Below, piece by piece: positions 7,737-50,406 of a stretch of DNA of 64,000 nucleotides; within the stretch, counting starts at the first letter, position 1; each line of letters begins with the position of its first letter. The stretch is taken from contig BK006940.2 of the NCBI GenBank assembly GCA_000146045.2, positions 160,001 through 224,000 of the forward strand, given 5' to 3'. Both the position numbers and the translations under genes were made by a program. Origin of the DNA: TPA_inf: Saccharomyces. Taxonomy: Eukaryota. The notes under the pieces were generated by a model that was given only the letters and a program-made list of their open reading frames with translations, had not been told where the DNA came from and did no database searches.

Positions 7737-7887
7737 ATATATGAATGTTAATAAATAAATTATTTAATTGATGATTGAGGATGAAATACACTTTTATGAT
7801 CTGTCCTTACGCGTAATAATTACAAGAAGGTGAGAAAATTGCCTTTTTTTGCTAATTTTTTTTTTTTGGTACCATATTCAATAATTG

Positions 7888-8496
7888 ATGCTAAATTATA
7901 AATTGATTTTATTGTTTTCCTCTTTCCTACAATTAATCTCTTTTTCTGGCTTTATGATATGTTGTTTAACTTCACCAATAATTAGAAACTGGGGGCTGGC
8001 TCAAGCTGCTGGAGTTTCATATGGTACCTTTGGTTACTGTAAAACTTTGAATTCTTTTTCCTGCTCTCGAGTACGTTTAATATATAACACCTCGAAAGAA
8101 ATATTACCTGGCCCTTCTCTTGAACGTTGGTGGCTGAGTCCTAAGGCAAGACATACAATAGGAGGACTTTTGATTTCGATACCGGTTGCTACATGTTTGA
8201 CTTTCATTTCTTTTGCACTTCCCTTGGTTATTATTTTTCTTTTTCAGACTGGAGGAACTAATGTCTCACTTATTACTTCCAACGCTATATTACACATATT
8301 GACACTTTTATCAACTATTTTTGCATGCACCGTGATCCTGTTACTTTGCATGCACCGTGATCCTGTTACAATTTCATCCTTATACGACTTGGTGTGGCTG
8401 GCTAACTGTTCCCTGTTCCCTCTGCTCGTTATTGGCGTGCATTTTCTCAGTTTTAGGTTTGATACGTCTGCGCAGTCAGACAGAAAACATAGCTAA
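7888..8496 (+). CDS. DCV1: Dcv1, SUR7/PalI-like four-TM membrane protein, 202 aa as encoded here (a truncated/frameshifted form, see the pseudogene feature)
   Basis: ATG at 7888; the track ORF starts 3 nt earlier at a TTG. The protein MLNYKLILLFSSFLQLISFSGFMICCL... has four hydrophobic segments. Recognised as YFR012W. Confidence 0.8.
   Translation: MLNYKLILLFSSFLQLISFSGFMICCLTSPIIRNWGLAQAAGVSYGTFGYCKTLNSFSCSRVRLIYNTSKEILPGPSLERWWLSPKARHTIGGLLISIPVATCLTFISFALPLVIIFLFQTGGTNVSLITSNAILHILTLLSTIFACTVILLLCMHRDPVTISSLYDLVWLANCSLFPLLVIGVHFLSFRFDTSAQSDRKHS
8320..8369 (+). repeat. Perfect 2 x 25-bp direct tandem duplication (tttgcatgcaccgtgatcctgttac x2) inside the DCV1 coding region
   Basis: Direct read: copy 1 at 8320-8344 and copy 2 at 8345-8369 are identical. 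Length 25 is not a multiple of 3. Confidence 0.95.
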
Positions 8497-9921
8497 AGAA
8501 GCTAGTATAGAGAACGTAGACAGTATTCTCAAACTATATGGAACGAGTCAAACATCAAGTTCCCTTGGCGAAAATTATCCACAAACAACTAAGGGCACAG
8601 ACCAATCTGTGTATGACATCACAAGTCTTTTTAATGATCTACCAAGGACCTTAGATCCCAATCAAGATAAACTGGCGGTAACAAATCAAGATGAACCACC
8701 GCCTGAAATCAAATCTCCATTGAAGCAAGCAGGTTTGGTGAGTTTCTTCGCTCCAAAGTTGAATGGTAAACAAATATTTTCTAGAAGGCATGTTGAAAAT
8801 CAAAAATCCTTATCTTTGGATGAAATCAATATAACCGACTTACCTGCAAAGCAAGAAAATGTGGAAATGCCTACTGAAAAAAAAAAGGCAAATATTTTAT
8901 ATTATGAGGGAATCTCAAGCCATTCACAAGATAACTACGACCCTCCTTGGTTATTTGGCGTTGAGGCTACCCAATCAGCCGATTGCTTTAAAATATATTC
9001 AAAAAAAAATCATTGTCTCACAGAGCCCCGCCAATATCAACTACAACAACCAAATAATTACCAGGATCAAAGTGAGGTTCCTCATAACTCTTTCATTCCT
9101 TGGTATTCCCGAAGAAGACCAGTAGGATACAACCACAATTACAATCGCTACTACTCACAGACAACTCATGGTAACAGCGAACACTCCCGACAAACATTGC
9201 CACAGACCTACAACATACACAGCATGCTCCCCAGAAAGTACAAGCCCGCCTACAAAAAACAGGCACATCGTGTGAAGAGTAATCCACAACCAGCTTATAC
9301 TTTCCAATGACAAAATAACAAGAATAAAGTACTATCCAATCTGCTTTTTTTGTACGCGTTTTGTTGGCGCGCCGCAATTTGAAAAATAAGAATAAAGTAC
9401 TTCTTGCTACTATTTAATGATTCCATCCGTATTCCACATCGTTGACGTCTGAGTCTGATAGACTAGTATATAGAAAATAAAAATAAGATAGAGTAAATAG
9501 TATGCTACTTTTATCGAGCCCATCTTTTTGAGCTTAATTTCTGAAACAAAGAAAGGAAGTGCCCATTTTTCCTCTTAACGGTTTCTAAAATTACTGAAGA
9601 GAAAACAACTTTTAGATGTAATTTATTTACATTAACATTAGCAGTGACTACAGAGGACAGGTATGGCGGTATGGCGGTATTTGTTAACATTGACTTTCCT
9701 TATGCGTGGAAGTACTAGTAATATTCCCTCTCGGATCATAAAAGTGAAATATCGTGCTTCACGATTTGCTGAAACTTTAACAAATTCATTGAAATTACGT
9801 GAGTTTATACTAATGAATGGACTTAATTTCTTAAGATGGTGATATCTTCCACATTGGTTTCGGCCAACAAAACTATCACTTACCAAGTACTTCAAGCAAA
9901 GTTTGCAATCCCCTATTGTTT

Positions 9922-14264: not shown

Positions 14265-16391
14265 TTAATTATCCTCGTAGTATGCAGACGTATCGTTGTC
14301 ATCATCGTCATTGTCGATGGCTCCATTCGTGCTCAAATTAAAATAGTCATCTGCATTATTAGCATCTTGAAGGGTACCTAAATCGCCCGGAGTCATGTAA
14401 ACAGTACTATTGGACCTTACTTTGGGGGATCCGGGTACACTCAAAGGCCTGGCAATCTTGAATTTCTTGCCACCGGCAAGAGTATTCATATTGGCGTCAC
14501 TAATTGTTTCACCCACCAGTTGCTTGAACTGCTCTGGATAGGCCCTACGAAGACCCAACTGTCTAGCCTTAACGTATTCCAACCCCATTCTCTTCCAATC
14601 TAACAAGTCTGATAGTCTTTCGGTTCTGTTTCTTTGGTTGATTCTTTGTCTTCTGGTCTTGTTTACAAACTCTTCCATGTAGTCTGCTAATTGCTCGACA
14701 GATTCATCAGGGCTCTTGAAACGACGGTCTACAATATAAATACCATAGTCTTTCGCTTGGTCTGTTTCAATCAAGTCTTCCATGTAGGCACCGAACCCAG
14801 AAACGTTTGTTGTGATAGATGGGACACCCATGACGGTACATTCTGCTGGCGTGTACCCCCATGGTTCGTAATAGGATGGAAAAACACCCAAGTGACAGCC
14901 GCGAACAAACTCGTCATAATCCAAACCAAGGATAGGGTTATTGGCGTTTAAGAATTCAGGATGGAAAATCACTTTTACACGATCACTCGAATCATTGAAT
15001 AATCTAACATGTCTAATTTGGTTTAAAATTGGATCGTTAGCATCATCGCACATGTTATGTGTGACTACCGGAGGCAATTCCCCGTAAGGTCTTCTCAGCG
15101 CCAATACCCTTTTCTTCAGCAAAACCTTTTCAGAACTCTTCAACAGCTCATCTAAATTAGTGGGCAACTCTGATTCTAGGCCATTATGAGGGTATCTCAT
15201 CGTATGCTCGAAAATTCTCTTCCCAATGGATGCGGTGACCTCATTAACAGTATTTTCCAAAGATTTTACAATGGCTTGGCTTTTCAGTGCCTCCACAGTG
15301 AAGGAATTGGTTTTGGCAGGCATGATCAAAAACGCTACCACCGTCTTCTTGGATCCAGAAACCTTCAATCTGTAATTGAGACGAGCCAATGATTCAATGA
15401 ACATGTCAGCACCTTTGTTTTTGTATTCATATCTACCAGCGATAAAGAAATAAACTGTGTTGTCTAGATCGAAATCAAAACAACCATGGAAATGGCCTCT
15501 GACGAAATCATTAATTTTGTCCTTTTTCAGGGCATGCAGATTTTGAAATTCATGTACTGCTTGAAACTTAACAACGTTCAAACCATTGGGCAAAATGCCA
15601 TCCGGTTTCCTCTTCAACAAATGCTCCGCTTCTAATGCAGTGATTTGCGACACAGTCGTAAAAACATCGGCAGTATGAGCCGCAGCGCGCTCAATGCAGT
15701 ACCTATGATATATGCCTCTCTTACCAGCTTCTTGGTCCACATCAAAATACTGTAGATTGTTATAAAAATCTACATCACCAGCGGCACACAAGTATCTACC
15801 CAATAAAGTTGCGTGCGTGGTGAAAATCGTTACAACATCAATTCTTTTCTTTCTACACAATGGCAGGGCTACACCAGCTAGCCATTCATGGAAATGGCCA
15901 ATGATGGCATGGCTACTGTCCAGTTTTGAAACTTCTCCCAAAAACCACACAACAACATAACCCAACAATATGGCATCGTTTGTTTCGTGATCATGCTCTG
16001 GTGATGGAATTCCGACGAGAGACCATAGGTCAGCCTTCCATTCGTTCAAAAAGTGTCTTACAGAATCCAGCTCAAATAAAATGACACGTGGTGCTCCCTC
16101 AATCAACCAGTTACCGTAGACAAAGTTCACACCCTTTTCCCGCATGGACATCAAAGTTTTTTGGATCGGTAACAGCTCTTCAGGAAAGATACTTTCATCT
16201 TCCCAGTCAAGTTTTTCAACCTCACTTTCATAAGTCGCCTTGTTCAAAGGTCCAAGCAGCGTATAGTTGTCTCCGTATTGTGCCACAGTGACTGGAGCCT
16301 TGGACTTCAAGACAGAGTAAATACCACCAACCCTGTTAGTTACTTCTGTTGCTACTTCGAACAGTAGATGATTTTGTAAGTCACGAGCCAT
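14265..16391 (-). CDS. GSY1: Gsy1, glycogen synthase (GT3 family), 708 aa
   Basis: True ATG at 16391 ([27 protein letters not shown]...); the track ORF starts at an upstream GTG. Recognised as YFR015C. Confidence 0.92.
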
Positions 16392-16718
16392 ACTTCGCTG
16401 TGATGCTGCGTCTGAGTTTATTTTCTTTTTCTTCACAGGTTTCCAGGCTGTGCTAACTAGTATATTTGGAGTTTAGATATATAGATATAAGTCAATGAAA
16501 AAAAAAGTGGAAGGTAATAAGAAGAACCGTTGCGGGAAGAAAAGAAGGAGTTTATGTTTATATACACCGGTGTAGGCTGTGCGTTGGTGTGAACACTTCC
16601 TGTTGCTGTTGCTGTTGAAGCCGTCTCCGCATGCAACTGTAGTCATACAGCCTCTTGTCTGCCCTTATTCAATTGACCAGCTAACAATAGCTTCGCTTTC
16701 TTTCTGAAAAATCCTCCA

Positions 16719-16723
16719 AGGGG
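16719..16723 (+). promoter_or_regulatory. Candidate STRE (AGGGG) stress-response element about 330 bp upstream of GSY1, next to a G6 run (16735-16740)
   Basis: Direct read: ...ccaaggggtattacttgtggggggttcc... in the GSY1 5' region. Msn2/4 STRE cores are CCCCT/AGGGG. Functional assignment is inference. Confidence 0.3.
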
Positions 16724-17041
16724 TATTACTTGTGGGGGGTTCCAGGAACCCATAGGCCGGGGCATGTTTCACGGGAAGTTCTGTGGCAGGAAATGGTCCC
16801 TGAGTAGCCGCGCAGGTGGCTTTTGCCTTTGCCGTACCGATCGGGAAATTGTGCCCCTGAAAGATTCCGTTTACGGCGCTTCTGTGCAACCTCTTTGGGC
16901 AAGCTTTGCTCCTGTCAATAGAGCAATTATTTGACAAGGTTTCTTTTACCTTGTTTTATGTGGGTTAAACGTGGGAGGAGAACTATAAATCACATGTGCT
17001 GTCAAGAGATTATGTTAGTTACGTAGCGCGCTTAAGCTTTC

Positions 17042-20000
17042 TTAAATAGTATCGTAAATGAGTTCCCGCAATTTGTAGTCTTCGTTAGCTTCTTCTATTT
17101 CTTCCCAGTTCCCGATTAAGTCATTGTGTCCTCTGACCACACCTGGAAGACTCCTACCCTTGCTGAAAGTCTTCCAAACTTTTCTCGCTTCATCATCTGT
17201 GCCAAGATCTCTGTAGGTGAACGGGATTCGGTTGGCCGTCAGGATTGTGCTTAAGCGATTTGTTCTGGGGATCATATGGAAACCGCCTCCGGCTAGTGAC
17301 GTGTATATATATACAGGTTCCTTTTCATTCAGCTTCCGGATCTCGCTAGTCGTTATTACGTCTTGTGGCTTGTCATTGTTTTTCTTGGATTGCTCAGTAG
17401 TTTGAGTTGTGGAGTCTTTCGCATCTAGTGATTGGAGTAGAGCGTTTAGTTCAGAATCATCAACAATTTTTAGTTGCTCTAAAAACTCATTCGTTTCGTC
17501 CAAAATATCTTTGAAGATGTCATCTGCACTTGCTTTCTTGGGATTTTCCCTTGTACTTTGATCTTCAAATCCATTTTCGTCATTGTTTGGGGCTTCTTTA
17601 CTGATTGACTCTGTTTCATTGAAGTCTAACTGGGATACCTCCTCTTCTTCTTGCTTAATTTCATTCTTTTCCTCCGTGATGTTTTCTTCCACTACAAGAT
17701 CAGGAAGAGAAGTTTCTTTCTCTGTTTCTTCTACTTCCAATTCCTTGTCTTCTCCTTTATTATCCTTTATATCTTGTTTTTCCAATTCTGGCAATTCGAC
17801 TGTCCTTTGAAATTCGTCTGAAATGTTGATATCGTCGATCTCTTGATCTCCGGTGACATCTTTGAGCGCCTCAGCAATCTTAGAATTTTCCATATTCTCG
17901 TCTTCTTTTGTCACGGCTTCCGCATCCTTTTTTGAAACTTCTGCCTCCGTACATGTTCCATCCTCTATTGGAGTCTCAGCAGGTTCCGAACATTTTGTTT
18001 CGATGTCTTCTTTTGAAGTTGCAGCAACTTCCACATCTTCATTTTCTTTATTCAGTTCAGCAGTGACTTCTGCCTCTTTTGGAGCGTCAAGATTTCCAAG
18101 CTCTGCCTTTACCTTGATAAATTCAGTTTTTTCGGAATTCTCCACTTCTGCATCTTCCTCGGTGTCAACTTCCACATCTTCATTTTCTTTATTCAGTTCA
18201 GCAGTGACTTCTGCCTCTTTTGGAGCGTCAAGATTTTCAAGCTCTGCCTTTACCTTGATAAATTCAGTTTTTTCGGAATTCTCCACTTCTGCATCTTCCT
18301 CGGTGTCCTTCTTGACAGATTCGCTGCTAGGTTCTATATATTTTTCGGCAGTTCCAACATCACTTGCTTTTGAATTTTCGCTCGCAGCCTCAGTAGCTTC
18401 ACCATGTTCATGATTTGTATCTTTGCCGGTGATTTTATCGCCTTCTTGTGTAATTTCAAAGCGTTTGGGTTTTTCTTCTTCTTTGAAACTAGTAGTAGAT
18501 CCTACATCTCCCATATCCTTTTGTGTAGTTTCAGCTTGTTCTGTTGAAATTTGAACGCGCTGGGATTTGGGATCTTCTTCTTCGGAATTCTCAATGGTTG
18601 TTGCAATTTCTGGCTTTACATCTTCATCGGGAACTCTAACATCTTCCTTTAGAACCTCAGGATCTCTTTCGTTGATTTGAAGATCTTCTGGTCTTCCGGA
18701 GGTACAACGCTTAACTACTTTTGGAGACTCAGGAGTCTTCGATTTCTCAACCTCTACACCTTCTGCACTTTCTCTTGCTGTTTCATCAACCTCTTTTTTT
18801 GCTTTCTCGTTGGAAAGCTCAGCAGTCCCCTCTTGCTTCTTTTTCATGTCTTCACTGATAGACTCAGCACCTCTCATTGCTATTTTATCATCTTTCATGG
18901 CCTTAACAGGTTCATCCAGCTTGACTTGTTCCCCTTCTTGATCTTCTTTGGCAACCTCGAGATCTTCAGGTATTATATTTTTTTCCACAGCCTCAACAAT
19001 CTCTACATCATCCCTAGGCGCGTCAGGTATATCGATTTCTCCGACAACTTCCGTAGGCTTGTTTTCCTGAGTAGGTGCTTCAGCTTCATCTTCAAGAACA
19101 AGGTTATCTTTAGAAATTTTTGCAGAGTTTGCGCTTCCCTCTATTTCAATAATGGAAGATTTTTCTCCCGCTTCTGACTGCTTTTCATCTCCCCCCATAA
19201 TTTCCTCTCCTTTTGATGTAGATTCTTCTTCGGTACCGGACACTTCATTATTTCTTACAGCTTCTTGCTCCCCGGTTACATTTTCTTTTTTAACTTTTGA
19301 AAAAGTCGAATTTTCTTCTTCTTCTTCTTCTTCTTCTTCTTCTTTTTCAACTTCTACAGATATATCGTTAGTACCGTGTTGTAGATTTTTTTCATTGTCA
19401 CTAATGCGCTTTGTTGGTCCCATCGTTTCGTCATCATAAGTCTCTCGCTCAGTTTCTGGAGGGATGATACTATCACTACCAGCTGCGTTAAAATTATGGC
19501 TCATGTTATTCTCATGATTAACAGATAATTCTTTCCTACATTTTTCGTCTTCTTTATCCTTCTGTTCAAAAACATGGTCTTCTTTCCCGATTTCTGTTTC
19601 TTTCTGATTTTTTGCAAGAACTGAAGGACTTATTCCGTCTCTATCACTTTCAGTCTGCTGCTTTTCCCCAGCTTTCAAATGTTTTGATTCGTTCTCTTTG
19701 AAATTAAACCCATTCTTAGTTAAACTTTCACTTTCAACATCCTTAGTAGACGCTTGCCCATTTTCATCACCTGCCTCCAAACCGTGCGGCTCTAGTTGGT
19801 GTTTAAAAGAAGCTGCATTTCCCTCATTAACATTTAAGATCTCATTCTCTTCTCGAGGTAAGGTATGTTCTGCCTTTTCCTCGTTGATATTGTTCTCGGA
19901 CTTTGAGGAAGTTTCGTCAACATTATCTTTGTTAGGCACATCTATGTCGAAGGTTTTGTCACTAGATTCATTTCTGGTTCTGATATCCATTTTTTCGACA

Positions 20001-20743
20001 TTAACAGGCTCATCTTGGACAATATTTACTTTGATATCCTCGTTCTTTGAACCATCTTCCTGTAGGTACTCTTCAATGCCTACTAGTATGGAATCTAAAG
20101 TTGACTGTTTTGACAAATCAGTAGTATCTGCAGGATTTGAAGAATTACGACCTCTTCTATTCGTGGTTTTTTTCTTTTTGTTTTTTTTTCTTCTCGTAAT
20201 TGGGCTATTGCCAACCTCAATTCCTGTGGATTCTTTGATTGGTGGTACATTTTCTGTGCCTTCCGCTACATTGTTAGTAGAAGTTTCTTTGATAACTACA
20301 TTGACGTCTATTGGGATCTGTGTGGGAGATTCTGTAGCGTCATTTATTGTATCTGTGGCTATCTCTATTACGTCGTCTTTTCTTTCCAAATCATGAGAGA
20401 TTGCATCCCGTGTGGAAGCTTCCTCGGTTTCACCAACAGAACTGGAAAGTTTTACAATAGTATCTCTGTCACGATTCGCCTTTATTTGTCCCTGGTTTTT
20501 CTTTTTATGACCTTTCAATTTAGAAGATTTCCTTTGAGATGATAATTCCTGTGCAAAATTCTCAGTGGCATTTATCGCTTCATCTAAGTCACTTTCTGTA
20601 AGTTGATCTCGACTTTCTATAATATCATTCGTACTTGGTAAGGGAAGATCTGTAGCAAGTGTCGAATACGAATCTCCAGCACTAGTTACCGATGGGGGTT
20701 GAACATTGTGTTCCTGATTTTCTACAGTCAAAGATTCTACCAT
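17042..20743 (-). CDS. AIP5: Aip5 (YFR016C), large acidic low-complexity protein with a C-terminal glutaredoxin/thioredoxin-like fold lacking a CxxC motif, 1233 aa
   Basis: ORF MVESLTVENQEHNVQPPSVTSAGDSY... The body is E/K/S/D-rich with an E10 run. The C-terminus reads ...VYIYTSLAGGGFHMIPRTNRLSTILTANRIPFTYRDLG... Recognised as YFR016C. Confidence 0.9.
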   Translation of the reverse strand: MVESLTVENQEHNVQPPSVTSAGDSYSTLATDLPLPSTNDIIESRDQLTESDLDEAINATENFAQELSSQRKSSKLKGHKKKNQGQIKANRDRDTIVKLSSSVGETEEASTRDAISHDLERKDDVIEIATDTINDATESPTQIPIDVNVVIKETSTNNVAEGTENVPPIKESTGIEVGNSPITRRKKNKKKKTTNRRGRNSSNPADTTDLSKQSTLDSILVGIEEYLQEDGSKNEDIKVNIVQDEPVNVEKMDIRTRNESSDKTFDIDVPNKDNVDETSSKSENNINEEKAEHTLPREENEILNVNEGNAASFKHQLEPHGLEAGDENGQASTKDVESESLTKNGFNFKENESKHLKAGEKQQTESDRDGISPSVLAKNQKETEIGKEDHVFEQKDKEDEKCRKELSVNHENNMSHNFNAAGSDSIIPPETERETYDDETMGPTKRISDNEKNLQHGTNDISVEVEKEEEEEEEEEENSTFSKVKKENVTGEQEAVRNNEVSGTEEESTSKGEEIMGGDEKQSEAGEKSSIIEIEGSANSAKISKDNLVLEDEAEAPTQENKPTEVVGEIDIPDAPRDDVEIVEAVEKNIIPEDLEVAKEDQEGEQVKLDEPVKAMKDDKIAMRGAESISEDMKKKQEGTAELSNEKAKKEVDETARESAEGVEVEKSKTPESPKVVKRCTSGRPEDLQINERDPEVLKEDVRVPDEDVKPEIATTIENSEEEDPKSQRVQISTEQAETTQKDMGDVGSTTSFKEEEKPKRFEITQEGDKITGKDTNHEHGEATEAASENSKASDVGTAEKYIEPSSESVKKDTEEDAEVENSEKTEFIKVKAELENLDAPKEAEVTAELNKENEDVEVDTEEDAEVENSEKTEFIKVKAELGNLDAPKEAEVTAELNKENEDVEVAATSKEDIETKCSEPAETPIEDGTCTEAEVSKKDAEAVTKEDENMENSKIAEALKDVTGDQEIDDINISDEFQRTVELPELEKQDIKDNKGEDKELEVEETEKETSLPDLVVEENITEEKNEIKQEEEEVSQLDFNETESISKEAPNNDENGFEDQSTRENPKKASADDIFKDILDETNEFLEQLKIVDDSELNALLQSLDAKDSTTQTTEQSKKNNDKPQDVITTSEIRKLNEKEPVYIYTSLAGGGFHMIPRTNRLSTILTANRIPFTYRDLGTDDEARKVWKTFSKGRSLPGVVRGHNDLIGNWEEIEEANEDYKLRELIYDTI
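18025..18306 (-). repeat. Near-perfect in-frame tandem duplication, 2 x 141 bp (47 aa each), within AIP5
   Basis: Copy 1 is about 18025-18165 and copy 2 about 18166-18306. They are identical except one visible substitution (gatttccaag vs gattttcaag; E vs G in the protein). Each encodes VDTEEDAEVENSEKTEFIKVKAEL(E/G)NLDAPKEAEVTAELNKENEDVE. Confidence 0.9.
19314..19343 (-). repeat. (CTT)10 on the plus strand, which is (GAA)10 encoding E10 in AIP5
   Basis: Direct read: cttcttcttcttcttcttcttcttctt. Confidence 0.9.
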
Positions 20744-20973: not shown

Positions 20974-21044
20974 TGCGCAAGCCCGGAATCGAACCGGGGG
21001 CCCAACGATGGCAACGTTGGATTTTACCACTAAACCACTTGCGC
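20974..21044 (-). tRNA. tG(GCC)F2: tRNA-Gly (GCC), 71 nt, identical to the copy at 2228-2298 but in opposite orientation
   Basis: Reverse complement of 20974-21044 equals GCGCAAGTGGTTTAGTGGTAAAATCCAACGTTGCCATCGTTGGGCCCCCGGTTCGATTCCGGGCTTGCGCA. A T7 terminator lies on the minus strand (plus strand aaaaaaa at 20962-20968). Confidence 0.95.
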
Positions 21045-24501: not shown

Positions 24502-26224
24502 ATGTCATCGGAAGAACCCCATGCATCTATATCCTTTCCAGATGGCTCACATGTCCGGTCGTCCTCCACTGGTACTTCATCTGTGAACACAATCGATGCT
24601 ACCTTATCCAGACCGAACTATATTAAGAAACCGTCCCTGCACATTATGTCGACATCTACGACGTCGACTACGACGGATCTAGTGACAAACCCAATTCTGA
24701 GCAATATCTCCGTGCCAAAAATAAGCCCCCCCACATCATCCTCGATAGCAACAGCGACATCAACAAGTCACGTGACCGGCACTGCGTCGCATTCGAACAT
24801 TAAAGCTAATGCTAACACTAGTACCAGCGTGAATAAGAAAAATTTGCCGCCAACAACTAGTGGGAGGATACCCTCTAGCACCATCAAGAGATATCCGAGT
24901 CGCTATAAGCCTTCTCACTCGCTGCAGCTGCCCATTAAGAACGACTCCAACTTTAAACGATCTAGCATATATGCCTCCAAATCCACTGTTACTGCTATCC
25001 CCATTAGGAACAATCGGCCAATTTCCATGCAGAATTCCTATGCGCGCACTCCTGACAGCGATCATGACGACGTTGGCGATGAAGTGTCTTCGATAAAGAG
25101 TGCCTCTTCTTCGTTGACCGCATCCCTGTCCAAGAGTTTCCTGTTCGCATTTTATAACAACCGCAAGAAGGACAAGACCAGTAACAATGGTGTCCTCTCA
25201 AAGGAATATTGGATGAAGGACGAGAGTTCTAAAGAATGTTTCAGTTGTGGTAAAACGTTTAACACTTTCAGAAGGAAACACCACTGCAGGATATGCGGCC
25301 AAATTTTTTGCAGCAGTTGCACTCTCTTGATAGATGGTGATCGATTCGGCTGTCATGCCAAGATGCGAGTATGTTACAATTGTTATGAGCATGCAGACAC
25401 ATACGAGGACTCCAGTGATGAAGAGAATGATTCTACAATGCAATTGAATGAGCCAAGGTCTCGCTCTCGCTCTCGTTCTTCCAATACCAATCCATATTCT
25501 CATTCACATTCGCATTTGCATCTCATTTCACAGGACAACCATAACGGTACCGATCTCCATGATCCAGTAGCAGCAACGGATAACCCTCAACAGCAGAATG
25601 AGGTCTACCTATTAAATGACGATGACGTACAAAGTATAATGACCTCAGGTGAAGATTCTAAATTGTTCATTTCTACACCCCCACCACCACCGAAGATGGC
25701 CATCCCAGCAACAAAGCAAGGCGGATCGCTGGAAATCTCATTCGATTCGGAAAACGATAGGGCTTTGCATTATCAAGATGACAACCCCGGTCGCCATCAT
25801 CACCTCGATTCCGTGCCCACAAGGTACACTATCAGAGATATGGACAATATATCACATTACGATACCAACTCTAATTCCACTTTGAGGCCACATTATAACA
25901 CCAATAACAGCACTATTACCATCAACAACCTCAACAACACTACTTCCAACAACAGCAACTATAACAATACCAATAGCAACAGCAACATCAATAATCCTGC
26001 GCATTCCTTAAGAAGGTCTATTTTCCATTATGTAAGCAGCAATAGTGTTAACAAGGACAGTAACAATAGCTCTGCAACACCCGCTTCGTCTGCACAGTCT
26101 TCTTCCATACTGGATCCTGCCAATCGTATTATCGGGAATTATGCTCATAGAAATTACAAGTTTAAATTCAACTACAATTCCAAAGGTCCTTCGCAACAAA
26201 ATGACACGGCAAATGGAAATAATG

Positions 26225-26272
<48 letters not shown>

Positions 26273-50344: not shown

Positions 50345-50406
<62 letters not shown>
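50345..50406. repeat. (TG)31 / (CA)31 dinucleotide microsatellite in the CDC14 upstream region
   Basis: Direct read: uninterrupted tgtgtg… from about 50345 to 50406. Confidence 0.95.

Follow-up and report, generated by a model that had tools for sequence, protein, structure and literature searches.

A copy-number polymorphic 141-bp coding tandem repeat in AIP5 (YFR016C) of Saccharomyces cerevisiae, with a probably old founding duplication and later array turnover

The array within AIP5 (YFR016C) is a polymorphic, minisatellite-type coding tandem repeat whose unit is long (141 bp, corresponding to 47 codons), and the length polymorphism of this gene is real and ordinary. Very probably, the array goes back to an older founding duplication in the S. 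cerevisiae lineage that was followed by later turnover of the units, with the repeat being close to neutral. In the window, i.e. the whole 64-kb stretch of DNA that was analysed, TRF and direct comparison placed the array at 18025-18306 as two 141-bp units arranged head-to-tail without spacer (Table 1). The corresponding TRF row spans 18025-18307 with a period of 141, 2.0 copies, 99% matches, 0 indels and a score of 559, and direct comparison of the two units gave 140/141 identity. This agrees with the original observation of adjacent 141-bp units that differ by one nucleotide. The sole mismatch, C at 18096 versus T at 18237, reads on the coding strand as GGA (Gly) in unit 2 and GAA (Glu) in unit 1. 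A second TRF row (18084-18366, 79% matches) was rejected as a separate repeat, as it is the array itself, read in a shifted register and extended into flank that is unrelated.

Table 1. Features of the AIP5 locus in the window; coordinates of the Spa2- and Bud6-binding regions were converted from published residue numbers.
Feature	Position	Strand	Basis
AIP5 / YFR016C coding sequence, host gene of the repeat	17042..20743	-	ORF, 1233 aa + stop
Spa2-binding region, codons 1-300	19844..20743	-	experimentally mapped, Glomb et al. 2019, PMC6737964
Repeat unit 1 (aa 813-859, the N-terminal one)	18166..18306	-	alpha type (U02 at protein level), with Glu as residue 24 of the unit
Repeat unit 2 (aa 860-906, the C-terminal one)	18025..18165	-	alpha type (U01 at protein level), with Gly as residue 24 of the unit
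Single-base microhomology at the duplication boundary	18307	-	period-141 identity 1 base past 282 bp; TRF end 18307
Bud6-binding region, codons 1000-1131	17351..17746	-	experimentally mapped, Glomb et al. 2019, PMC6737964
Aip5-C, thioredoxin/glutaredoxin-like actin-binding domain, codons 1132-1233 + stop	17042..17350	-	match to PDB 6ABR/6ABS

No other tandem repeat in the 64-kb window has a period above 25, and a 33-nt piece of the unit occurred exactly twice in the window and in none of 100 dinucleotide-preserving shuffles. Older copies of the unit were not found elsewhere in Aip5, where similarity reached only about 30% and reflected shared acidic composition. Outside the array, period-141 identity drops straight to background, extending by 0 bases to the left and 1 base to the right. 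In gene sense, a G immediately precedes unit 1 and each unit also ends in G; this 1-base microhomology points to a founding event that would have relied on almost no homology. The array comprises nt 2438-2719 of the AIP5 ORF and encodes two 47-aa units, the unit containing 14 Glu and 4 Asp with a net charge of -13. Because 141 = 47 x 3, the reading frame is kept, and the ORF is uninterrupted in alleles with 1, 2 and 3 units. Thus, as had been proposed, the duplication preserves the frame and its product is an acidic 47-aa segment, the peptide given previously being the unit rotated by one residue.

The assignment of the host gene to AIP5 was confirmed by 100% identity over 100% of the 1233 aa to the entry 'Aip5p [Saccharomyces cerevisiae S288C]' (P0003) and by the match of residues 1110-1233 to PDB 6ABR_A ('Actin binding protein', E=4.5e-81). 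The C-terminus also matches C. albicans Aip5 (6M4C, 1.8e-35), and a Pfam Glutaredoxin match at this end is weak (16.5 bits, below the curated cut-off of 22.9). AIP5 is adjoined downstream by the glycogen synthase ORF GSY1 (14265-16436, Pfam PF05693, 1155 bits), and a tRNA-Gly(GCC) is located upstream (20974-21044). The order AIP5-GSY1 was found at all examined loci that reach past AIP5 (L001-L009, L011, L012), locus L010 being a 4.5-kb contig with AIP5 alone. Binding of Spa2-C has been assigned to Aip5-N271 (Xie et al. 2019, PMC6838200), and the N-terminal part of the protein is disordered according to circular dichroism (PMC6838200). The array sits outside both mapped binding regions, with the one for Spa2 on its N-terminal side and the one for Bud6 on its C-terminal side. 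A poly-Glu run in Aip5 varies among natural alleles as well.

Copy number of the unit was determined by an ungapped sliding scan of Aip5 proteins. Among 90 distinct S. cerevisiae sequences, 54 carry one unit, 33 carry two and three carry three; these counts were taken over distinct protein sequences rather than strains and therefore do not represent population frequencies. Concordantly, Aip5 proteins fall into three length classes of about 1181-1188, 1228-1233 and 1275 aa, and copy-number variation was confirmed at the DNA level in 11 alleles. The suggestion that strains may differ in repeat number was therefore borne out, with one, two or apparently three units. Of the distinct sequences under long-read (ScRAP-style) names, 23 are single-unit, 26 are two-unit and none is three-unit; the ScRAP assemblies were built on Nanopore long reads (PMC10412453). 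Apparent three-unit arrays consisting of alpha units throughout (unit types are described below) come solely from the YJM1388 and YJM1307 assemblies, and when a genome is assembled from short reads, identical units may be collapsed or counted wrongly. Single-alpha alleles P0034, P0036 and P0037 derive from short contigs, and a single alpha unit is present under ScRAP-style names as well (P0038, P0087). In 83 of the 90 alleles the array is flanked by KYIEPSSESVKK and AATSKEDIETKC, the other seven deviating by a single substitution in either flank or in both. Unit spacing is exactly 47 aa or 141 bp in all arrays, with identical boundaries throughout.

All four orthologs from other Saccharomyces species (L004, P0092, S. 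kudriavzevii and P0094) have one unit each. L004 represents a sister at the level of S. paradoxus, with a GSY1 that is 91.9% identical in nucleotide sequence. Since four of four outgroup orthologs are single-unit, the duplication postdates the split from the sister species. The suggested comparison with orthologs thereby speaks against an ancient duplication with exactly two diverged units in all strains and species: S. cerevisiae alleles have one to three units and the outgroups have one.

Comparison of the units among alleles distinguished two types, alpha and beta, which are 7-8/141 nt apart, while alpha units are identical to each other or differ by 1 nt; U01 is the most frequent alpha unit in the sampled alleles. 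Over the flanks, the window differs from RM11 at 15/2579 positions (~0.6%) and from the most diverged allele at 54/2579, and a Poisson comparison of alpha-beta divergence with flank divergence gave P=2.4e-5 for RM11 and 0.011 for the most diverged allele. Polarisation with the outgroups assigned the derived state to alpha at unit nt 83, 103, 112 and 114 and to beta at nt 123. The derived changes of alpha include T35, L38 and N39, and beta is nearer to the outgroup state; polarisation was not possible for unit site 46 (F/C/V). Most two-unit arrays are alpha-beta, and mixed arrays have alpha followed by beta in 24 of 24 distinct cases and beta-alpha in none. Two-unit arrays with the same boundaries are found on many diverged haplotypes that differ by up to 23 aa in their flanks, and are spread widely across a flank tree which, owing to recombination, is unreliable as a genealogy. 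Given these shared boundaries on diverged haplotypes and units 7-8/141 nt apart compared to 0.6% in the flanks, the founding duplication is best regarded as an old segregating polymorphism. Hence, the original description of the duplication as recent is not supported for the founding event, and the alpha-alpha array of the window is better regarded as a probable product of recent turnover.

Signs of turnover were found at several levels. A three-unit intermediate of the form alpha-alpha-beta is present (P0088/L006), and in the hybrid unit U18 a beta tail follows an alpha head in which the synonymous T83 is present. Moreover, 11 site pairs inside the 141-bp unit violate the four-gamete test. 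Exchange between units is the likeliest explanation of such hybrid and mosaic units, as judged from their sequence patterns. U15 shows C103 alone in an otherwise beta unit; as a simple crossover product it would be expected to carry the alpha-specific synonymous T83, which it lacks and U18 has, and it is therefore not claimed as one. Haplotypes no more than 5 aa from the allele of the window (over 953 columns) carry alpha, alpha-alpha or alpha-alpha-alpha. The residue that distinguishes the two units of the window, E24 or G24, is a polymorphism common to many alpha and beta units and therefore need not postdate the duplication. Recent unequal exchange or conversion probably explains the near identity of these two units better.

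In the history that we favour, a beta-like unit would have been duplicated once in the S. cerevisiae lineage by an illegitimate event with 1 bp of microhomology, and unit 1 would subsequently have become alpha. From then on, misaligned pairing could draw on the 141 bp shared by the two copies, and turnover may proceed by unequal crossover between sister chromatids or homologs, by replication slippage or by gene conversion. Expected products are contractions to one unit, either pure or hybrid, expansions to three units (alpha-alpha-beta, alpha-alpha-alpha) and homogenised arrays. The S288C-type alpha(E24)-alpha(G24) array of the window would accordingly be a recent product of such turnover and not a fresh duplication. 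We infer this order of events from the distribution of unit types, and an alternative order would have alpha arise first as a single-copy allele and give rise to alpha-alpha, the second unit being converted later by beta alleles.

A simple recent duplication, in which a single alpha unit was copied de novo in S288C-type ancestry and the 1-nt difference arose by later mutation, would account for units that are 1/141 nt apart in the window and for the presence of single-alpha alleles on almost identical haplotypes (P0034, P0036, P0037). However, a single unit lacks repeat homology, and therefore a second duplication, independent of the one on diverged haplotypes, would have had to reuse the exact breakpoints of the alpha-beta arrays. 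The occurrence of both E24 and G24 across many alpha and beta units, the existence of the alpha-alpha-beta intermediate and the wide spread of two-unit arrays across the flank tree likewise argue against it. Furthermore, the two-unit state is not restricted to S288C-like haplotypes, as would be expected of a duplication private to the reference, and we consider this explanation unlikely. That the array of the reference is an artefact of assembly or sequencing is hardly conceivable: although assemblers generally miscount identical tandem copies, nothing specific favours it here, and the U02-U01 array is present in P0003 (5 contigs) and recurs under ScRAP-style names in the separately assembled P0004 (CBM_collapsed) and P0005 (CBM_HP2), with U01-U01 arrays in several other genomes. 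Recovery of the two-unit array from independently assembled genomes therefore excludes an assembly artefact. Older founding followed by turnover remains our preferred explanation of the array.

For dN/dS, the unit gave a value of 1.03, compared to 0.49 for residues 1-1131 and 0.01 for Aip5-C, and the array lies in the acidic, disordered and least constrained part of Aip5. Judged by these substitution rates, copy-number variation is most likely close to neutral. With each unit, the linker that joins the N-terminus, which binds Spa2, to the C-terminus, which binds Bud6 and actin, becomes 47 residues longer and its net charge changes by -13. This raises the question of adaptive tuning, i.e. of selection on copy number or on the alpha unit through oligomer or condensate properties or through the spacing of the Spa2- and Bud6-binding ends. 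Aip5-N oligomer size depends on N-terminal length, and shortening of the N-terminal part reduced Aip5 at the tip (Xie et al. 2019, PMC6838200). In addition, the derived alpha changes at nt 103, 112 and 114 are confined to 12 nt and are nonsynonymous without exception, and the distinct sequences include many alleles with one unit as well as many with two. However, the dN/dS values (about 1 for the unit, about 0.5 for the disordered part) fit weak constraint, the array lies outside both mapped binding regions, and the published truncations removed hundreds of residues rather than 47. Searches of the literature gave no experiment or association linking a phenotype to AIP5 repeat number, and asymmetric evolution after duplication, with five derived changes in alpha versus one in beta, was dropped as it was not significant. 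Adaptive tuning is thus very unlikely, and near-neutrality is the reading retained.

Four amino-acid differences between alpha and beta are confined to a 21-nt interval (unit nt 103-123) located 18-38 nt upstream of the junction between unit 1 and unit 2, and over this interval alpha-beta divergence about equals that of the sister species. No ectopic donor for the alpha-specific cluster was found within the 64-kb window. It is conceivable, and in our estimation very unlikely, that alpha is more than a copy that has drifted: error-prone repair synthesis in the course of the founding duplication may have left the cluster behind as a scar, or alpha/beta content and copy number may measurably alter the oligomers or condensates of Aip5 and be subject to selection in natural populations.

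The repeat polymorphism of AIP5 is already known. Doniger et al. 2008 (PLoS Genet 4:e1000183, PMC2515631) compared S288C, M22 and YPS163 and listed YFR016C among 12 genes with in-frame tandem-repeat InDels >100 bp. This InDel is almost certainly the polymorphism of the 141-bp array, because the latter is the only repeat in the gene with a unit >100 bp. Neither the text nor the examined supplements give InDel coordinates for YFR016C, its sole line being an upstream SNP (PMC2515631). Unit types, the range of 1-3 copies and the outgroup state, all described here, are absent from that record, and beyond it our literature searches found no further report of a YFR016C repeat polymorphism. The same list includes SPA2 (PMC2515631), which encodes the largely disordered polarisome scaffold that binds Aip5 (PMC6838200). 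SPA2 is a different gene with a different repeat, and nothing here connects the two polymorphisms.

Beyond housekeeping, the finding has little importance: the repeat belongs to the S288C reference and the YFR016C indel was published in 2008. In practice, short-read variant calling and assembly will misjudge the array interval, and beyond residue 812 the numbering of Aip5 differs by 47 or 94 residues from one strain background to another, a point that is relevant for constructs. The natural one- and two-unit (and perhaps three-unit) alleles, together with the variable poly-Glu run, provide a ready allelic series in which length and charge of the disordered region could be examined for an influence on the reported length-dependent oligomerisation of Aip5. 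Should such an influence be real, it would constitute a small, clean case of a disordered, condensate-forming region that varies naturally.

In 2005, Verstrepen and co-workers reportedly described intragenic tandem repeats of S. cerevisiae such as those of FLO1, with units of about 135 bp. Like FLO1-type repeats, the AIP5 array is a long-unit, in-frame, head-to-tail repeat with protein length variants segregating among strains, whose copy number appears to shift by recombination between units. The FLO1 repeat reaches up to about 18 copies, in contrast to 1-3 in AIP5. Unlike FLO1, which encodes a cell-wall protein, AIP5 encodes a cytoplasmic polarisome and actin-nucleation factor and has no reported phenotype that scales with copy number. 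The megasatellites of Candida glabrata, which Thierry and co-workers are said to have described in 2008 as in-frame intragenic repeats with motifs of at least 135 bp, resemble the AIP5 repeat in being in frame, inside a gene and of very long motif. They differ in having many copies and in residing mostly in adhesin-like cell-wall genes, whereas the AIP5 array has two copies within an intracellular protein.

The gene call and the repeat call of the original prediction, an in-frame 141-bp duplication of an acidic 47-aa segment within AIP5 (YFR016C), were both borne out. The host ORF translates to a protein with 100% identity to S. cerevisiae S288C Aip5p (YFR016C) along the entire sequence, its last 124 residues matched the Aip5 C-terminal actin-binding domain (PDB 6ABR, E=4.5e-81), and its downstream neighbour is the glycogen synthase gene GSY1. 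Tandem Repeats Finder (TRF) reported period 141 with 2.0 copies, 99% matches, 0 indels and a score of 559, and base-by-base comparison showed 140/141 identical positions, the sole mismatch being 18096 (C) versus 18237 (T); at the protein level the units differ only by Glu/Gly at unit position 24. The periodicity ends sharply (0 bases of extension to the left, 1 base to the right), and an exact search with a 33-nt piece of the unit gave two hits in the window and none in shuffled controls. Each unit contains 18 acidic residues (net charge -13), and no other tandem repeat of the 64-kb window has a unit >25 bp.

Coordinates of AIP5, its repeat array and nearby features in the window
Feature	Position	Strand	Details
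AIP5 ORF	17042-20743	minus	1233 codons
AIP5 141-bp array	18025-18306	minus	gene nt 2438-2719; in frame (ORF listing)
Unit 1 (N-terminal copy)	18166-18306	minus	aa 813-859; 47 residues
Unit 2 (C-terminal copy)	18025-18165	minus	aa 860-906; 47 residues
Poly-Glu repeat (TTC)12	19313-19348	minus	AIP5 codons ~478-487; TRF
2 x 25 bp perfect tandem duplication (TTTGCATGCACCGTGATCCTGTTAC)	8320-8369		TRF score 100
Microsatellite (AAT)17.7	26218-26270		
Microsatellite (TG)31	50345-50406		perfect
tRNA-Gly(GCC)	2228-2298	plus	
tRNA-Gly(GCC)	20974-21044	minus	
tRNA-Ala(AGC)	44924-44996	minus	
GSY1-AIP5 intergenic region	16437-17041		

A homology search with Aip5 returned 99 proteins, 90 of which were S. 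cerevisiae Aip5 variants whose lengths vary in steps of 47 residues. As predicted, repeat number differs among strains: counted directly over distinct protein sequences rather than strains, 54/90 carry one unit, 33/90 two and 3/90 three, with the same flanking peptides and exact 47-residue unit spacing in all 90. The proposed comparison with other Saccharomyces species revealed a single unit at this position in all four orthologs, namely P0091, whose adjacent GSY1 is 91.9% identical in nucleotides to that of the window, the level expected of S. paradoxus, P0092, P0093 (S. kudriavzevii) and the fragment P0094. The ancestral state is therefore one unit, and the sequence comparison places the origin of the duplication in the S. 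cerevisiae lineage.

Unit sequences sort into two types, alpha ending in EVTAELNKENEDVEV and beta ending in (E/G)(V/I)IAEQDKEDEDVEV, and both units of the window's array are alpha. In DNA of 11 alleles, alpha units are mutually identical or 1 nt apart, while alpha and beta differ at 7-8/141 positions. This exceeds the background of the 2.6-kb array flanks, in which the window's allele differs by 0.58% from RM11-1a (single beta unit) and by 2.1% from the S. cerevisiae allele with the greatest divergence (Poisson P=2.4e-5 and 0.011, respectively). Outgroup comparison identified unit nt 83 (synonymous), 103, 112 and 114 as derived in alpha and nt 123 as derived in beta, which is near the ancestral state; Gly24 is ancestral. 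In the flank tree, which recombination makes only a rough guide, the S. cerevisiae alleles that branch off most basally have one beta-type unit each. Judged from the units compared, the Glu24/Gly24 difference in the window is a polymorphism common to many units and not necessarily a new mutation.

In mixed-type arrays alpha preceded beta in 24/24 distinct sequences. An array of the form alpha-alpha-beta is present in P0088 (locus L006). In the single-unit allele U18 the front part is alpha, with the synonymous base specific to that type, and the tail is beta, the product expected if units 1 and 2 had crossed over while misaligned. Within the 141 bp, 11 site pairs show all four allele combinations, indicating frequent exchange between units. 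On haplotypes with flanks nearly identical to those of the window's allele (<=5 differences over 953 aligned flank residues), alpha, alpha-alpha and alpha-alpha-alpha arrays all occur. P0030 (locus L011, ANM_HP haplotype) has a beta-beta array: unit 1 reads FE|EVIQDD, and the sequence of unit 2 is that of the common single beta unit found in RM11; homogenisation or exchange thus ran in the beta direction too. Hybrid unit U15 was not counted as a crossover product, since only nt 103 bears the alpha base on a beta background and the crossover prediction failed.

Short-read assemblers readily collapse or miscount identical tandem units. Alpha-alpha, alpha-beta, beta-beta, single-alpha and single-beta arrays were confirmed in proteins with ScRAP-convention names (collapsed, HP1, HP2), which denote Nanopore-based assemblies (PMC10412453). 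The YJM1388 and YJM1307 assemblies are the sole source of all-alpha three-unit arrays, and the alpha-alpha-beta array is from one metagenome scaffold.

The two unit types, the U18 hybrid and the alpha-beta order point to turnover, and a recent duplication, as originally proposed, does not account for the whole history. Most probably, one illegitimate duplication, with only 1 base of microhomology at the junction, founded a two-unit array in an ancestor shared by many of today's S. cerevisiae lineages, and unit 1 then gained the alpha changes. The two units would have supplied homology for misaligned pairing, and unequal crossover, slippage and gene conversion probably gave rise to arrays of one or three units as well as to hybrid and homogenised ones; the window's S288C-type alpha(E24)-alpha(G24) array would be a recent outcome. 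Alternatively, alpha may have arisen first as a single-copy allele and been duplicated, the second unit later being converted by beta alleles, but this order would be expected to yield beta-alpha arrays too, and none was seen among the 24 distinct mixed arrays. We consider it improbable that the tightly clustered derived alpha changes beside the junction stem from mutagenic repair during the founding duplication or from selection acting on the unit, or that copy number affects Aip5 condensation.

Published mapping assigns Spa2 binding to Aip5 residues 1-300, Bud6 binding to 1000-1131 and the folded domain to ~1132-1233, with the entire N-terminal part intrinsically disordered by circular dichroism (PMC6737964, PMC6838200). 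Lying between the two binding sites at residues 813-906, the repeat is therefore in a disordered linker. Relative to the sister-species ortholog, dS is ~0.45-0.5, similar along AIP5 and in GSY1, while dN/dS is 0.01 for the C-terminal domain, 0.02 for GSY1, 0.49 for residues 1-1131 and 1.03 for the repeat unit (45 codons, imprecise). Aip5 thus shows an extreme within-protein rate contrast between its disordered N-terminal 1131 residues and its C-terminal domain, and, within a fast-evolving disordered region, the repeat lies where constraint is lowest. Nucleotide identity to the S. paradoxus-level ortholog (locus L004, 285-3929) is 72-78% for AIP5 versus 91.9% for adjoining GSY1. Gain or loss of a unit is probably nearly neutral. 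Xie et al. (PMC6838200) report a dependence on N-terminal length for the size of Aip5-N oligomers and for tip concentration, in truncations that took out hundreds of residues; a putative "tuning" of Aip5 through a 47-residue step is conceivable.

YFR016C was among 12 genes with a >100-bp InDel involving an in-frame tandem repeat in a comparison of S288C, M22 and YPS163 (Doniger et al. 2008, PMC2515631). We take this InDel to be the 141-bp array because it is the sole repeat of that unit size in the gene; the locus has been catalogued as polymorphic since 2008. By its sequence, the array belongs to the well-known yeast class of polymorphic in-frame intragenic tandem repeats, having every sequence-level property of the class that was tested. 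It differs in its unusually long unit, its very low copy number and its host, an intracellular polarisome protein in contrast to cell-wall proteins. The searchable literature yielded no mention of the alpha/beta unit types, of copy numbers ranging from 1 to 3, of single-unit outgroups or of the turnover evidence; these refine an ordinary case rather than define a new kind of thing.

The (TTC)12 tract, encoding a Glu run, is a second polymorphic repeat of AIP5. The run following VEVEK has 10 Glu in the window and 5-11 among the retrieved S. cerevisiae proteins, which explains the length pairs 1228 versus 1233 aa and 1181 versus 1186 aa. RM11-1a DNA (locus L001, 1501-5082, CH408057.1) contains an uninterrupted 1193-codon ORF with 17 Glu, and the deposited RM11-1a protein (P0047; 1186 aa, 10 Glu) differs from this translation, 21 nt of the GAA run evidently having been dropped by the annotation. 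The 25-bp duplication overlaps plus-strand mechanical ORFs 7885-8496 and 8357-9310; its unit length is not divisible by three and would shift the frame if coding. The GSY1-YFR016C intergenic region was listed as a candidate non-coding RNA by folding Z-scores, with transcript ends not found and "insufficient support" (Kavanaugh and Dietrich 2009, PMC2603021). The second tRNA-Gly gene lies ~230 bp upstream of the AIP5 start codon.
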